NCBI GenBank assembly: GCA_044360315.1
Contig: JBIKKO010000004.1
Location: 1 to 62,017 of the forward strand
Length of the DNA stretch: 62,017 nucleotides
Reading direction: 5' to 3'
DNA from: Oligoflexales bacterium
GTDB taxonomy: Bacteria > Bdellovibrionota_B > Oligoflexia > Oligoflexales > RGVZ01
A model generated the notes under the pieces. That model worked only from the letters and a program-made list of their open reading frames with translations. It was not told the DNA's origin and ran no database searches. Every line of letters begins with the position of its first letter. The first letter of the stretch is position 1. Shown here one piece after another: positions 50,284-56,376 of the stretch. Both the position numbers and the translations under genes were made by a program.

Positions 50284-53200
50284 ATGATCTCACAAAGTCG
50301 TTATTATTGTCAGCTGAAGCTCATTTGTGTTTTGTTTGCGCTGGTCTCCTGTAAGACGCGGACGGAGGTTAGCAATGCGCCGCAGCCTGGGCAGTCAGAG
50401 CCATTTAAGACTGAAGATTATAATGCAGATATCACCAAGAAAGAGGATTCTGCAGATGATATCGAATTTCAGGCCGCTTCGACCAATGGAGTGGCTCAAC
50501 CGTGCTGCTTTAAACTAACGGCGACTGATGTGCGGTTTAATCTTTCATGGGGTCGCGTTACTGGGGTCTCCGGTTACAAGATCTTTAGGGGGACGAATGC
50601 TATAGCCATGGCAGAGGTGGCTAGCACGACTTCGACGAGCTGGCGTGATACGACGGTTGGACCAGGCGAAACCCGGTTCTATTACGTGCAGGCTTGGAAT
50701 GCCAGTGGACTAGGGACGCCGACCGCAACTCTTTCGGCTTCGAATCGGGCCAATTCTCCCACCAATGTGCGGGCTATATCAGTGCAACAGCGGATCCGTT
50801 TGGACTGGGACTTGATGCCGGTGGCTGCGAATTACCGCATTTATCGGGGGACCTCGGCAACCCGCCTTTCCCACGTCGCTTCTGTTGGCTCTGGAACGAA
50901 TACATGGGTCGATGGAGCGCTTGACACGAAAAAAACCTACTACTATCAGGTAACGTCTTTAAACGCGGCGGGAGAAAGCCCTAGGTCACCAGTCGTCCAG
51001 GTCAGGCCGGGATCTATTACTTTAGTTAACCTTATGGCGACTGTCGATGTGCAAACGGTAAAAATTTCTTGGCCACCTAGGGATAATGTAACGGGATACC
51101 GCGTGTACAGGCGGCAAGGAAGCGGTAAGGCAGCACGTCAGGGAGATACGACGGGCCTTGAATATATTCAATCTCAGCTCCCACCGCAAACAGATTACAC
51201 TTACTATGTGAATGCGTTGATAAACGGAGTGGAGATTCCACATTCAAATTCAACACCAGTCAAGACTGGGGGTTCTCTGCCTCCTGAACGAATTAAGTTG
51301 TCGCTTAACGTTGGCGTAGATCGCGTCACACTCTCCTATAACAGAATCACCGATGCGCAAGGTTACCGGATCGAGCGCCGGGGAGATGTTGGTGAATTTA
51401 AAGAGATAGCTACGAGTTCAGTGCTAAGTTGGACTGATACTGGTGTTACACCAGGTTTGCGTTATTTTTATCGCGTCACTGGGTATCGCCTTGATGGTCA
51501 GTTTAGCGTTTCAAATGAAGCGAGTGGAGTTCCTGGATCCGTCGCGGCCTCGGATGTGCGGTTTTACCGTGGTAAATCGTGTTCTGGGGAGTCTTTTGCT
51601 TTCGCCAATACCCAGACCAGCTGTGAGATCTTGGCATCATCAGTTGCTGGAAATGTTGAATCGATCAAGACAGGGTCTCGCTGTTTGAACACGGGCACAG
51701 TTTCGTTTTTGTCGGCATGTAATCTGTTCAAAGCAGGGTCTGATAACAACGCTGCTGAGCTTTACTCCAAGACTGATTGTTCGGCTTCTGCAGTCCTAGG
51801 ATTTGTTAATCAGACAACGAACTGCCAGGCCCTGGGACAAGTGGTAAGCGGAAATCCTTTGGTTCTTTCCGTGTCCTACATCGATAGTTCAACCTGTAAG
51901 CCGGTGACAAGTCAGTCGTTTGTCAATGCATGCTCAAACTATCGCTTGCGTCCTCCCGTCCTGACCGCAAGTAACTTTGGTGACTCCATCGGATTGACGT
52001 GGAGCACTACAATCGATGCTCAGAGCTACTCGCTTTATCGTCGCGCTGAAGACGAAGTTGCGTGGACTCGCGTCACGGAGACTTCCAACAACTCTTGGGT
52101 GGAGAGATCCCTAAGACGTGGGGTGTCATATTCGTGGTACGTCAATGTGCAGGCCCGAAATGGCGGCTATGTTTCCTCAAATATTGTATCAGAACGCTTA
52201 GTGGTGCCAGATGAACCTGGTTCTGGGACGCCTCGGGAGGTCGCGCTCTTTCGCTCAGATAGTTGCACTGGTTCAGCGTTAGCATTTATATCGCAGGGTA
52301 CAAACTGTGAACAGCTTGTACGGCAGATTGGAAATGATGCTGTATGGGGTGTCAGAGTGGGAGGCGTTTGCAAAAATATTCAAGATACGAGTCTTCTGAG
52401 TGGTTGCGAGCGATTTAAGGGTGCGGTTACTTCGAATTCTGTAGCTCTTAAAACAAGCTCTAACTGTGGTGGCGAACCCATTGCATATGTTTCTTCACAA
52501 ACAGAGTGTTCAAATCTCTCGGGGCTATATACCGGAAGTATCTATAGTGGAACGAATGAACTTACAGGGCAGTGTACCACGATTAGTTCAAGTGGTATCG
52601 TCCAGGCCTGTAACCAGTTAAAGCCAACGTTATCTGGAGCAAGTTTAGCGTTGCACTCATCGTCCAATTGTTCTGGTAATCCTCTAGCACTTTTTGATGA
52701 AACAGCTAATTGTGATGAAATTGGTTCCAGAGTCACGAGTACAGTTTACGGCGTGTCGGTTCGCGGGCAATGCCGAAGTATTTCGGGTAGCAGCGCCGCG
52801 TCAGCTTGTCAGCGATTTAAGGCAGCATCTAATTCCAACGCCGTGGCCTTGTTTCAGTCGAGCTCGTGCGGCTCCTCGTACGCTCTTGGCTATGTCTCGC
52901 CTGTTTCCAATTGTTCGATGTTTGGATCATTAGTTGACAGTACAGTCTATGGCATTGACTCGGGGAGTGGATGCCGTTCTATTGACAGAACGTCATCACA
53001 GAACGCTTGTGATCTTTATAAAAATTCAGGATCCCAAGCTAGACGAGTGGAGCTTTATTCGGATTCATCTTGTTCGAACAGATTTCTGGGTGCAATTGAT
53101 GAGCGGACGGACTGCTCTCGGATTTCGTCGACGATTACAGCATACGTTTACGGAGTGAAGAGAGATAATAAATGCTATTCGATCTCAAAGAATTCTCGCG

Positions 53201-54237
53201 AGGCATGCCAGGCATTTAAAGGCGGAGCAAATTTTGATGCCACATCCTTGTTCCAAAGCTATACGTGCAGTCAAAGCGAGTTGAGTGCGTTTGTTAGCAG
53301 TAACTCCAACTGTGAATCGGTTCAAGCGGGAAGTCCTAATGATTACGTCTACGCGATTCAAAATAGTGGATCATGCACTAGGGTCGACTCCACAAACGTT
53401 TTGCAAGCCTGTAATCTTTACCGATTTCGTGGGGGTTCGAATCAAGTAGAGCTCTATCGCTCGGACACATGTGCAAGCTCGCTAGTGGGGACCGTTCGCG
53501 AGAACACTGATTGCGAGCAGTTTGGGGCAACTAATTCATCGAACGTGTATGCAGTACGAATAGGCTCCCGCTGTGTGGATATTGCTGATACGACCTCAAA
53601 AAGTGCTTGCTATCGATTCCGCGACGGTTACAAAGACGATGCAACTATAGTTTATAGGTCAGATACCTGTAATGGGAATGCGCAAGCAGTGATTGCGCCA
53701 ACGACCAACTGTAGCTATTTGTCTCAATTTGTATCTGGCAACTCATGGGCCGTTGGAGGTAGTAGTCGCTGTGAAGATATTTATGACATGGACTTTAAAC
53801 AGGCTTGTGAACGCTATAAAAATACGATGAACGGAGTCGGTTTGTACGAGTCTGATACATGTTCATACTCCTATGTCGGCGCGGTTGCTCTTTCCACAGA
53901 TTGTCAGTCCTTTGGCTCTAACACAGCCTTCAGACTAGGAGCTGTGAAACGGCGTGGCGAAAGCTGTCTTGATGTGGATGATCGAAGTCTACTAAATGGC
54001 TGCGTGTCCTTCAAAGCGGGCGAAGAGCCTTTACCATACAGTTTTTATACATCGGATAACTGTTCTGGAAACACCCTCCAAGCATATGCTAACAATAGTA
54101 CGGATTGTCAGGCACTTCAAAATGCTGTTTCGAGCCGATACACTGAGTCTGTGAAGCGTGGAAACCAGTGTTATAACATTTCGGGAAAATCTCTTGGTCA
54201 AGCGTGCTCTAACATTAAGGTTGGCGTCGTTCAGTAA
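50284..54237 (+). CDS. Large surface lipoprotein with 5 fibronectin type III domains and 12 four-Cys repeats
   Basis: Lipobox LVS-C, FN3 signatures (W...Y.IYR...Y.Y.V) and 12 repeats parsed by eye. Confidence 0.85.
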   Translation: MISQSRYYCQLKLICVLFALVSCKTRTEVSNAPQPGQSEPFKTEDYNADITKKEDSADDIEFQAASTNGVAQPCCFKLTATDVRFNLSWGRVTGVSGYKIFRGTNAIAMAEVASTTSTSWRDTTVGPGETRFYYVQAWNASGLGTPTATLSASNRANSPTNVRAISVQQRIRLDWDLMPVAANYRIYRGTSATRLSHVASVGSGTNTWVDGALDTKKTYYYQVTSLNAAGESPRSPVVQVRPGSITLVNLMATVDVQTVKISWPPRDNVTGYRVYRRQGSGKAARQGDTTGLEYIQSQLPPQTDYTYYVNALINGVEIPHSNSTPVKTGGSLPPERIKLSLNVGVDRVTLSYNRITDAQGYRIERRGDVGEFKEIATSSVLSWTDTGVTPGLRYFYRVTGYRLDGQFSVSNEASGVPGSVAASDVRFYRGKSCSGESFAFANTQTSCEILASSVAGNVESIKTGSRCLNTGTVSFLSACNLFKAGSDNNAAELYSKTDCSASAVLGFVNQTTNCQALGQVVSGNPLVLSVSYIDSSTCKPVTSQSFVNACSNYRLRPPVLTASNFGDSIGLTWSTTIDAQSYSLYRRAEDEVAWTRVTETSNNSWVERSLRRGVSYSWYVNVQARNGGYVSSNIVSERLVVPDEPGSGTPREVALFRSDSCTGSALAFISQGTNCEQLVRQIGNDAVWGVRVGGVCKNIQDTSLLSGCERFKGAVTSNSVALKTSSNCGGEPIAYVSSQTECSNLSGLYTGSIYSGTNELTGQCTTISSSGIVQACNQLKPTLSGASLALHSSSNCSGNPLALFDETANCDEIGSRVTSTVYGVSVRGQCRSISGSSAASACQRFKAASNSNAVALFQSSSCGSSYALGYVSPVSNCSMFGSLVDSTVYGIDSGSGCRSIDRTSSQNACDLYKNSGSQARRVELYSDSSCSNRFLGAIDERTDCSRISSTITAYVYGVKRDNKCYSISKNSREACQAFKGGANFDATSLFQSYTCSQSELSAFVSSNSNCESVQAGSPNDYVYAIQNSGSCTRVDSTNVLQACNLYRFRGGSNQVELYRSDTCASSLVGTVRENTDCEQFGATNSSNVYAVRIGSRCVDIADTTSKSACYRFRDGYKDDATIVYRSDTCNGNAQAVIAPTTNCSYLSQFVSGNSWAVGGSSRCEDIYDMDFKQACERYKNTMNGVGLYESDTCSYSYVGAVALSTDCQSFGSNTAFRLGAVKRRGESCLDVDDRSLLNGCVSFKAGEEPLPYSFYTSDNCSGNTLQAYANNSTDCQALQNAVSSRYTESVKRGNQCYNISGKSLGQACSNIKVGVVQ

Positions 54238-54256
54238 TGATGAAGACCAAGTCGGC

Positions 54257-54324
54257 GTTTAATCTATCAAGTGAGTAGACCTCTTAGGGTAACCTAAGAG
54301 GTCTACTCACTTGTTTAATCTATC
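54257..54324. mobile_element. 44-bp perfect palindrome flanked by 12-bp direct repeats (possible MITE or IS scar; may also act as a terminator)
   Basis: GTTTAATCTATC (54257-54268), 20-bp arm, GTAA loop, 20-bp complementary arm, GTTTAATCTATC (54313-54324). Confidence 0.55.
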
Positions 54325-54613
54325 GGCCCGTGAACTTTTGCGGGATGTTAACTTCGACGGTGAAATGATCCGTCGCAGGACTTCTAACTTGCTGTAATAA
54401 TGGCGGCCGTTAAAGCAATAAACTCAATAGCAGCAAAGACTTTTTTAGAACGCACAGGTGCGCTCGTCATAGCTTGATTAGGCTCTACTCGAGCAGTCTT
54501 GGGTGGAATGTGTAACAAAGGAGCCACCTCTGGCGCATGCTGCCAATCAACTACTGACCAACAGCTGATTGGCGATCCCCGTTTACCGGACATGTTGCGT
54601 GGTTTTATCACAG

Positions 54614-55045
54614 TTATTCTACAGTGATACTTTTATCCAGATTTCTTGGACGATCGATATTGCGACCTAGTGTCTTTGCAAATTCATAAGCAAAAAGTTG
54701 CAGTGGTATGGTTGCAAGGTTCGGCGTAAACTCCTCTAAGGTGGTGGGAATCTGGATTGCCACATCACACAAAGATGCAGTTTCAACATCACAGTCGGAA
54801 ACGATCCCAATAATTCTTGCGCCTCTGGATTTTGCTTCGTGTATGTTGCCAATCATCTTGCTTGAGCCTTTGCCCTTGGGGGCGACCGCTATGACTGGAT
54901 AGCCAGGCTCAATGAGAGCCAAGGTTCCATGCTTTAACTCTCCGCCACCATACCCTTCGGCGTTTCTATAGGATAGCTCTCGCAGCTTTAGGGCGCCTTC
55001 GCATGCGGTTGGATAAAAAACTCCCCTGCCGATGAAGGCTAGGGA
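54614..55045 (-). pseudogene. glmS: 3' remnant of glutamine-fructose-6-phosphate aminotransferase (second SIS domain only)
   Basis: In-frame extension upstream of the listed ORF reads SLAFIGRGVFYPTACEGALKLRELSYRNAEGYGGGELKHGTLALIE...PRNLDKSITVE*. It is bounded by an in-frame TGA at 55046-55048 and has no start codon or RBS. Confidence 0.85.
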
Positions 55046-55078
55046 TCATCCCGATTCCTTGTCTTTTGAGCAATATGT

Positions 55079-56086
55079 TTACAAACGCTTAGTGGTTGAT
55101 GGTTTTTTGTGCCATTCAGTCGCCATCTTTGCAACGTGAGCAATGAATGCGGCGCGATTCTTGGCGTCCTTTGTGGATGTCTTGATGAAAACTGCCACCG
55201 CGAGCTGCTGTCCGCTTGGGCCGCGAAGGATGCCCACATCGTTGATCGCGGAGCTCATGCCGTTCAGGCTGATGCCTGTTCCAGTTTTGTGACCAATCGT
55301 CCAGTCTTTAGGGGTGCCTGCTCGCAGTCGGTCTTGGCCTGTTCGTGTTTCGCTCATGATATCCATGAGCTGGGTGGTTTGCTGTTTGGAAAGGAGTTCT
55401 CCTTTGGCCAGTTTCTTTAAAAATAGAGCCATAGCCATGGGCGTGGCTGTATCTCTGGGGTCGTCTAAATAGGCTGAAAAAGCTTTTTTGCGTAAGGCTG
55501 CTGGTAGGTTTTGAATCGCGCTCTCAAATTTATCTAAATCGGAGTACTCTGGTTTCCAACGAAGTCCCGAAGATTCCGATTGTAATTGACGTTCGTCTCT
55601 GTCGATCGATATCCCGCGGATGTCGTTGCGGTTGAGAAATTTATTTATGCTTGAGATGCCCCCTAAATGTTGAATCAGTAGGTCAACAGAAGTGCTGTCG
55701 CTGTCAATGATTGAGTGGCGTATTAGGTCGATAAGGCGAACTTTCATTTGACCTTGTTGTTTGACAAGATTTGAAAATTCCCGTGGGCCAGGGCTTGTAT
55801 CCTGGGGGCGCACAATAATTGTATCGTTTAAAGACATGGTGTTGCGATCTGCGGCATCCATGATTGCAGCTCCCACAATAAGCTTCATGACGCTTTGAAG
55901 TGGAAACAGGGATCCTCCGTTTACACAAGACGCAGTCGAGGAGTTGATATCTAAAACACAAGCACCCACCGGACCATCGGCAGTCTTAGCTAGACCTTGA
56001 AGTTGTTGCTCAAGTGTTTGGTTTTGCGAGAGGCCTGTTGGCGCGAATGATCCTAGTGCGATGGGTATGATAGTTAGAAATTTCAT
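55079..56086 (-). CDS. bla: Class A beta-lactamase-like protein
   Basis: Signal peptide, FPLQSVMK (SxxK), SDS at the SDN position, DRDE (E166), DPRDTATP and HKTG; RBS GGAGG. Confidence 0.9.
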   Translation of the reverse strand: MKFLTIIPIALGSFAPTGLSQNQTLEQQLQGLAKTADGPVGACVLDINSSTASCVNGGSLFPLQSVMKLIVGAAIMDAADRNTMSLNDTIIVRPQDTSPGPREFSNLVKQQGQMKVRLIDLIRHSIIDSDSTSVDLLIQHLGGISSINKFLNRNDIRGISIDRDERQLQSESSGLRWKPEYSDLDKFESAIQNLPAALRKKAFSAYLDDPRDTATPMAMALFLKKLAKGELLSKQQTTQLMDIMSETRTGQDRLRAGTPKDWTIGHKTGTGISLNGMSSAINDVGILRGPSGQQLAVAVFIKTSTKDAKNRAAFIAHVAKMATEWHKKPSTTKRL

Positions 56087-56376
56087 AAAAATGATCCTCC
56101 AGGCCGTGAATCCTAGCATAGCCTTTTAGTATCGAGCAAGTAGCCTGGCCTAGACGACGTTTCGCTGGACCTGTCTCAAGGGGGATTCGTTTAGATTAAA
56201 CGTGTTCACGCCTGTGCTATGGTAGGGCGTGACAAGAGATCAAACAACTGTTAATAAAACAGAGCTAGCGTTTGTTTGATGGTTTGCGCTTTCTTGGCTG
56301 TTTGAGTTCATACATCGAGGATGTTTCGTTGTGGATAAGTTTTACGCACTGCGCGTGATCGCGTCGGAGAGTCTCA

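Follow-up and report, generated by a model that had tools for sequence, protein, structure and literature searches.

The window analysed here, a stretch of 62,017 nt, is contig C252 of a fragmented MAG of 352 contigs and 3.9 Mb. In it the gene of an FN3 lipoprotein is followed closely by a hairpin with perfectly matching arms. On the other side of the hairpin are about 300 nt of non-coding DNA and then the 3' end of a glmS-like remnant. The remnant has the C-terminal SIS domain only and adjoins a class A beta-lactamase-family gene, the two together covering 54614-56119 (Pfam SIS, 4.6e-8; Beta-lactamase2, 7.4e-43). In the reading argued here, the features of the locus are:

50284..54237, + strand: gene for the FN3 lipoprotein (1317 aa), its stop codon 30 nt before the hairpin
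54249..54662, no strand: 414-bp segment including the whole palindrome, absent from a co-occurring allele (joint 54248/54663)
54258..54267, no strand: left copy of the 10-bp sequence TTTAATCTAT, very probably a target-site duplication, matching 54314-54323 at 10/10 positions and directly 5' of CA
54268..54269, + strand: CA, the outermost 2 bases of the left inverted-repeat tip of a probable ISAs1-type MITE, from MITE tip sequences and occupied tips
54270..54288, - strand: left arm, the final 19 nt of a group II intron in reverse complement (terminus ...CCTAAGAGGTCTACTCACT and the 3' strand of domain VI)
54280..54311, + strand: the final 32 nt of the intron in sense orientation, namely the domain VI distal stem CCTCTTAGG, the GTAA loop, the 3' strand and the terminus
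54289-54292, + strand: GNRA loop GTAA, part of the intron sense copy
54312..54313, + strand: TG, the outermost 2 bases of the probable right MITE tip, from empty and occupied tip sequences compared
54314..54323, no strand: right copy of TTTAATCTAT, an exact match to the left copy

The repeat finder returned an inverted repeat with 21-nt arms at 54268-54288 and 54293-54313, 100% complementary around the 4-nt loop GTAA. It also returned a direct repeat, GTTTAATCTATC, identical at 12/12 positions between 54257-54268 and 54313-54324. The order from 54257 to 54324 is therefore GTTTAATCTATC, AAGTGAGTAGACCTCTTAGG, GTAA, CCTAAGAGGTCTACTCACTT and GTTTAATCTATC again. Folded as single-stranded DNA, the palindrome region reaches -25.2 kcal/mol (z = -8.1), and chance matches to the 20-mer arm numbered 0 in 100 shuffles.

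Mis-assembly classically arises at palindromes and repeats, the MAG is in 352 pieces, and one of its contigs (C45) is seemingly mis-joined across an intron. These points would favour an assembly or library artefact, a chimeric fold-back formed at the intron end. Against this, 31-mers specific to the palindrome are present at flank-like depth in two other lake-water samples from separate studies (X2 and X3, available as Logan k=31 contigs). Record 8 of X2 (53900-54309) begins in the left flank, crosses the left arm and GTAA and covers 17 nt of the right arm, and record 16 of X3 (53936-54309) takes the same course as far as those 17 nt; both have 0 differences. The right junction is present in record 4 of X1 (54284-54692) and the left junction in X7 (54126-54276). 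At the point where the palindrome and the natural intron diverge they have 9 nt in common, and because this is far under any assembler's k, a de Bruijn artefact is not credible; the chance that the structure is an artefact of any kind is close to negligible. The exact palindrome and 12-bp direct repeat described in the earlier note are borne out by the repeat finder and by these independent assemblies, and the assembly artefact which that note had named as a possible undoing is not upheld.

Is the hairpin simply the terminator of the lipoprotein gene? It resembles Rho-independent terminators in its GC-containing stem with a GNRA loop, in the TTTAAT behind it and in its position, 30 nt past a stop codon. 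Unlike them, it has a stem of 20-21 bp, far longer than is typical, and a weak T-run; its sequence is accounted for by its origin, and a deletion allele is without it. A terminator consensus scan flags 54268-54313, but at a rate like that in shuffled sequence (2 found vs. 1.0 expected). Judged from the sequence, the hairpin is possibly, at most, an incidental terminator behind the lipoprotein gene.

Or, is the palindrome itself a mobile element? A perfect palindrome flanked by a perfect direct repeat invites that view, and the earlier note had taken the 44-mer for a MITE of two abutting ends or for a palindromic element whose insertion duplicates 12 bp. The whole palindrome is present in 1 copy in the 3.9-Mb genome, and neither the 44-mer nor an exact 40-mer from it had any match in the scans of genome_contigs and metagenome_contigs; copies with different flanking duplications, sought in the genome and in both sets, were not found. 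Elsewhere in the genome the arm 20-mer occurs at three places (C45:11345, C300:44433 and C108:1136), each time singly and each time terminating an intron or a piece of one. Moreover, the arms are without the MITE inverted-repeat sequence for transposase binding. The 44-mer as a minimal mobile element is very improbable. The candidate of a self-mobile palindromic element was excluded by copy number.

The three other occurrences of the arm each start an identical 89-nt unit, which read on the opposite strand is domains V and VI of a group II intron. On C45, C300 and C108 alike this unit scores 44.4 bits against Rfam RF00029 (gathering score 40), in an alignment that includes the AGC triad helix, a bulged branch-point A in domain VI and, as the terminus, ...CUACUCACU. 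The Rfam scan of the window alone reached no threshold and gave sub-threshold miRNA-like hairpin noise only. Window positions 54280-54313 are 100% identical over 34 nt to all three contigs, these being the last 32 nt of the intron and TG, and the 11 nt of the left arm that lie outside this match are complementary to the intron's final 11 nt. GTAA corresponds to the tetraloop of domain VI, whose orientation shows that for 54280-54311 the sense strand is +. The 3' end of the intron is placed at ...CTCACT by seven related introns, which terminate in ...CTACTCAC(T/C) and are then followed by unrelated exons. We consider it virtually certain that the palindrome arms derive from the 3' terminus of a group II intron resident in this genome. 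The proposal that they are transposon ends fails on the 34-nt match, as does the expectation of a transposase with terminal repeats matching the arms, which match the intron and not the ISAs1-type repeat CAGGGCTACCGCATCTAAA.

Two of these three places, C300:44433-44521 and C108:1048-1136, are 89-nt intron 3' fragments cut at the identical base, among the final codons of the gene for the reverse transcriptase, and each is fused to a different MITE-internal sequence. The shared cut point suggests one ancestral deletion derivative, or a recombination hot spot.

The third place, on C45, is a full-length intron of 1922 nt that begins GTGCG (RF02005, 89 bits). It encodes a protein of 459 aa with RVT_1 (1.9e-29) and GIIM maturase (2.9e-4) domains and a TIGR04416 score of 294.7 bits; domain searches found no HNH or other endonuclease domain in it. 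The nearest relatives of the intron are in Oligoflexales and Oligoflexus MAGs. The duplication TGAATCAACC ties the 3' flank of the C45 intron to the right flank of a MITE on C320 (C45:11344-13447 and C320:1-251). Beyond the 5' end of the intron, C45 runs into a different MITE, where a second intron copy was probably collapsed or mis-joined by the assembler, since TGAATCAACC pairs the 3' flank with C320. The genome has at least 2 full-length introns.

The site that the intron occupies is the tip of a transposon. On C45 and C320 the 5' exon is ...TTTAGATGCGGTAGTCC, followed by the intron start GTGCG, and the genome has about 25 unoccupied copies that read ...TTTAGATGCGGTAGCCC or ...GGTAGCCC, then TG and unique DNA. 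Empty tips therefore have ...GGTAGCCC before TG, where occupied tips have ...CTCACT before TG. In occupied tips the order is duplication, CA, intron in reverse complement and GGACTACC..., so the intron lies between the terminal CA and GG of the tip (C45, C320 and L029), or between CC and TG on the other strand, 2 nt inside the tip. L029, a 97.5% identical intron from another metagenome, is set between ...GGTAGCCC and TG in the same way. The relatives L033, L034 and L035, with 65-73% protein identity, are located after ...GCCC tips, and the L034 intron is 2 nt inside a 115-bp mini-MITE. The homing site is common to related introns whose proteins are 65-97% identical, and several members of the lineage target the ...GCCC tips of ISAs1-like inverted repeats. 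The target of L033 resembles two abutting tips (CAAGGGCGATTAGATGCAATCGCCC).

The exon-binding sequence EBS1 is found at the homologous D1 position, a 6-nt stretch between ...GGTT and CCCAGCAG in a CC(C/T)AGCAG context. There it covaries perfectly with the six bases that end the 5' exon, as seen in 8 relatives (set examined: loci L029-L035, L110 and L135, from metagenome and genome contigs). A search for an exact complement in the C45 intron gave no match, and the position was taken instead from the covariation in the relatives. In the C45 intron EBS1 is GGGUAA, which by our reading pairs imperfectly with the tip, at 4-5 of the 6 positions.

The transposons themselves form a family of MITEs with tips CAGGGCTACCGC...GCGGTAGCCCTG (CAGG...CCTG), the inverted repeat being CAGGGCTACCGCATCTAAA, and lengths of roughly 150-490 bp. 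ISAs1-family elements have ends of CAGGG... and duplications of 8-10 bp (ISfinder). The genome contains 46 tip matches, and in run X1 the MITE depth is about 30-45 times that of the flanks, which corresponds to about 30-45 copies. MITEs end many of the contigs of the MAG, examples being C263:5884-6321, C101:9718-10076, C254:5208-5618 and C320:92-241. ISAs1-family transposase fragments are found within MITEs on C254, C281, C65 and others, and a decayed element of 949 bp between MITE-type tips (C49:200-1148) retains DDE_Tnp_1_assoc (1.4e-10) and NF033564 (4e-15). Intact ISAs1-family genes or elements are present at C205:415-1642 and C119:28844-30089. Among these the autonomous parent of the MITE was not found, the C205 and C119 elements having different inverted repeats and no clear duplications.

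Where the flanks of MITE insertions can be compared, they carry 10-bp duplications directly adjoining CA and TG. The MITE on C263 is flanked by TGGTGTGTTG (10/10) and that on C101 by a 9/10 duplication. The left flank of C45 and the right flank of C320 have TGAATCAACC (10/10) across the intron. On C300 the duplication is CCTGTAATAT (10/10), and the left tip is capped by an intron 3' remnant in the order duplication, CA, 88 nt of intron 3' end, 13 nt, MITE body, ...CCTG and duplication, with the same 11-bp coincidence as in the window. C300 is a one-sided analogue of the window site, at which the duplication is likewise 10/10 and intron 3' ends cap both tips.

With this geometry the window sequence can be partitioned again, as TTTAATCTAT, CA, AGTGAGTAGACCTCTTAGG, GTAA, CCTAAGAGGTCTACT, TG and TTTAATCTAT. 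The meaningful split is into a 10-bp duplication and, adjoining it, a palindrome of 46 bp that runs from CA to TG. The direct repeat reaches 12 bp (G + 10 + C) because the G of TG and the C of CA coincide with the target's own neighbouring bases. The window keeps nothing of a MITE beyond these 2 + 2 nt, neither inverted-repeat body nor transposase remnant, and nothing but CA survives of the left MITE end. Since so little is left, the site is counted as a MITE footprint on its geometry, which is the same on C263, C101, C45/C320 and C300. On this footing TTTAATCTAT is very probably the 10-bp target duplication of an ISAs1-family MITE. The earlier note had called the direct repeat a transposon target-site duplication, and the shared 10-bp geometry supports it. 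It had also likened the duplication to the 10-13 bp of IS4-like groups; here the size was close, but the evidence points instead to ISAs1-family MITEs and to 10 bp.

How, then, could two facing intron ends have come to lie between the copies of a MITE duplication? The account that we favour, and consider fairly likely, is that a MITE with two inverted introns was collapsed by one deletion. An ISAs1-family MITE, or a full IS, would first have inserted with duplication of the 10 bp TTTAATCTAT. The endonuclease-less intron would then have retrohomed to a point 2 nt from the end of each tip, with ...CC on one side and TG on the other, EBS1 pairing to the terminal inverted repeat. This would have left introns in both tips in inverted orientation: duplication, CA, intron in reverse complement, MITE body, intron, TG and duplication. 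Long inverted repeats are unstable in bacteria through slippage or hairpin deletion of this kind. The structure of about 4.3 kb, with its inverted arms of 1.9 kb, would have lost its interior in one deletion between copies of CCTCTTAGG, either by replication slippage or by hairpin cleavage or processing followed by microhomology repair. The remainder would be CA, 19 nt, GTAA, 19 nt and TG between the duplications, which is a perfect 46-bp palindrome.

The repeats for such a deletion are provided by the intron itself. Because domain VI is a hairpin, each inverted arm has both strands of its stem, and 9-bp direct repeats therefore stand 11 nt from the outer ends. We modelled an ancestor of 4302 bp (duplication, CA, reverse-complement intron, MITE body, intron, TG and duplication), with the C263 MITE as a stand-in for the missing body. 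Each arm of the model has CCTCTTAGG and CCTAAGAGG 11 nt from its outer end, making two pairs of 9-bp direct repeats; no direct repeat within 60 nt of the large inverted repeat's base is longer. If a deletion runs from the first CCTCTTAGG to the last one, what is left is window positions 54258-54323 letter for letter; if it runs instead between copies of the other 9-mer, CCTAAGAGG, the palindrome is unchanged apart from a loop in the opposite orientation. One slippage event, or one hairpin cleavage, would thus explain the perfection of the palindrome, its loop, the CA and TG and the duplication together. The occupation of both tips at this site is our inference, as is the route of the deletion. 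The imperfect pairing between GGGUAA and the tip counts against the two-intron account. Endonuclease-less introns prefer one strand at replication forks, and because of this preference the occupation of both tips would mean one insertion in the less favoured orientation. The genome showed no doubly occupied MITE, its assembly breaking at every intron and MITE copy.

One-sided intron-capped tips, by comparison, are what this genome does show, on C45/C320 and C300. They raise the alternative that only one tip was occupied and that the second arm arose by a fold-back template switch in replication, the MITE and intron body being lost in the same event. The nascent strand would have copied the duplication and CA, primed on the TG beside the intron 3' end, copied the intron end backwards through domain VI and come back via the 9-bp stem. 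The product would be identical, and CA/TG and the domain VI repeats would supply the microhomologies. This alternative needs two exact switches, the first on 2 nt of homology, where the two-intron account needs a single slippage between 9-bp repeats, and we think it unlikely.

Still less likely is abortive retrohoming, in which the reverse transcriptase would have copied the last 33 nt or so of the intron and the cDNA, snapped back on domain VI, would have been sealed into a staggered break with a 12-bp duplication. Snap-back synthesis by reverse transcriptases is well known, and the loop orientation suits a 33-nt intron-end cDNA with an 11-nt self-copied extension. However, the intron protein is without an endonuclease domain, so that a staggered bottom-strand cut is not expected, and self-copying from a downstream primer should give an inverted and not a direct flank repeat. 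It also leaves unexplained the match of the 10 bp and CA/TG to the other MITE insertions. Endonuclease-dependent TPRT with a 12-bp stagger was likewise dropped, given the missing domain and the 10-bp plus CA/TG geometry.

A deletion guided by domain VI might be expected to happen more than once. The pattern AGTGAGTAG-N10-40-CTACTCACT was searched in 131 genomes of the phylum and gave one further case, in another family and in the same order (G077:C165:9799-9840; locus L168, 1501-1542). This palindrome, AGTGAGTAGACCTCCTAAG TTGC CCTAGGAGGACTACTCACT, consists of head-to-head intron 3' ends flanked by CA...TA. By our estimate chance alone would produce the bare pattern about 0.5 times, and a control pattern matched once; we count the case as real because its interior is domain VI, that of G077's own degenerate intron, which has copies on C80 and C250. 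No recognisable duplication was seen at its flanks, and one flank is TA, not TG. It supports the recurrence of head-to-head 3' ends and not the full model of two introns and one deletion, and such recurrence would suit a systematic reverse-transcriptase artefact, as the snap-back alternative supposes, as well.

Each of the pieces is already known, as intron remnants, IS footprints and palindrome collapse, and the scar is a variant combining them. Bacterial group II introns are said, by Dai and Zimmerly in 2002, commonly to live inside other mobile elements. Remnants of such introns have been described in bacteria, e.g. the RmInt1-related FRE652 of Sinorhizobium (PMC4181065). The site described here is like these in being a non-functional group II intron piece inside a mobile element, with a full-length parent in the same genome. 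Unlike the known remnants, which are single, one-ended truncations, it has two facing 3' termini of 19 nt each in a perfect palindrome, and its host transposon is down to 2 + 2 nt and the duplication. With ISAs1 elements and MITEs it has in common the 10-bp duplication and the CA/TG termini, in the geometry of at least 4 other family insertions in this genome; unlike them, it is without the inverted-repeat body and internal DNA, and consequently without transposase recognition or movement. The sequence today is an immobile scar. Our literature searches gave nothing specific on group II introns that occupy ISAs1 elements or MITE tips, or that leave palindromic scars.

Slipped mispairing is a route by which long inverted repeats are deleted, the slip taking place between short direct repeats close to the hairpin base (work of Glickman and Ripley, Sinden, and Leach), and in E. 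coli palindrome instability is SbcCD-dependent. The proposed event would be like these deletions in having 9-bp direct repeats 11 nt from the base of an inverted repeat with 1.9-kb arms and, as in those cases, the leftover palindrome is short and under the usual threshold of instability. In contrast to them, the direct repeats come from the intron's own domain VI hairpin, which on the model would make the product predictable and, with G077, apparently recurrent.

The wider proposal is offered tentatively, as a real possibility that we do not yet prefer to its negation. An endonuclease-less intron lineage may be specialised for insertion 2 nt inside ISAs1 tips, where it would split CA from the transposase-binding repeat, immobilise the MITE and build inverted pairs. 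These would collapse predictably at domain VI into palindromic scars and larger deletions, making the lineage a recurrent source of palindromes and fragility. If this is general, one selfish element disables another. The nesting would have three layers, the target, an ISAs1 MITE and a group II intron at the MITE cleavage tip, and it was decoded by asking which other sequences of the genome end with the arm sequence. A perfect palindrome with a flanking duplication need not mean a mobile element. As a footprint the domain VI collapse product would be predictable, so that past double invasions could be searched for systematically. The main value lies in the transposon-tip specialisation of the intron lineage and in this footprint, the palindrome itself being a dead scar and a marker.

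Other states of the locus were sought in relatives and in lake populations. In 41 relatives and 22 family genomes the intergenic DNA at the orthologous locus could not be aligned and the intron was absent, and among these no allele with a MITE and two introns was found, the species-level relatives being without the intergenic DNA or the intron. Logan contigs from 12 runs contained no 56-bp skip of the kind that an empty site would give and no phased MITE or intron allele; these k=31 contigs end at the palindrome and at every repeat, and phasing over a 1.9-kb repeat is impossible with them. The empty allele with a single copy of the direct repeat, which the earlier note had proposed to look for, was thus seen neither among relatives nor in the 12 runs, and the Logan contigs gave no empty site for the C263 MITE either.

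A shorter allele does occur in the lake population. Contigs spanning the joint 54248/54663 are present in at least four runs (X1, X5, X6 and X11), without microhomology at the joint. In addition to the palindrome, the allele drops the last 16 codons of the glmS-like remnant. The right end of the removed segment has the codons for ...PRNLDKSITVE, which we take to be the conserved C-terminal motif of GlmS-type proteins, and because the removed DNA encodes this native C-terminus the short allele is a deletion and not the ancestral state. We count the loss of the 414 bp as a sign of local fragility at the site. In X11 the short allele is linked to 4 SNPs at 54081-54134.
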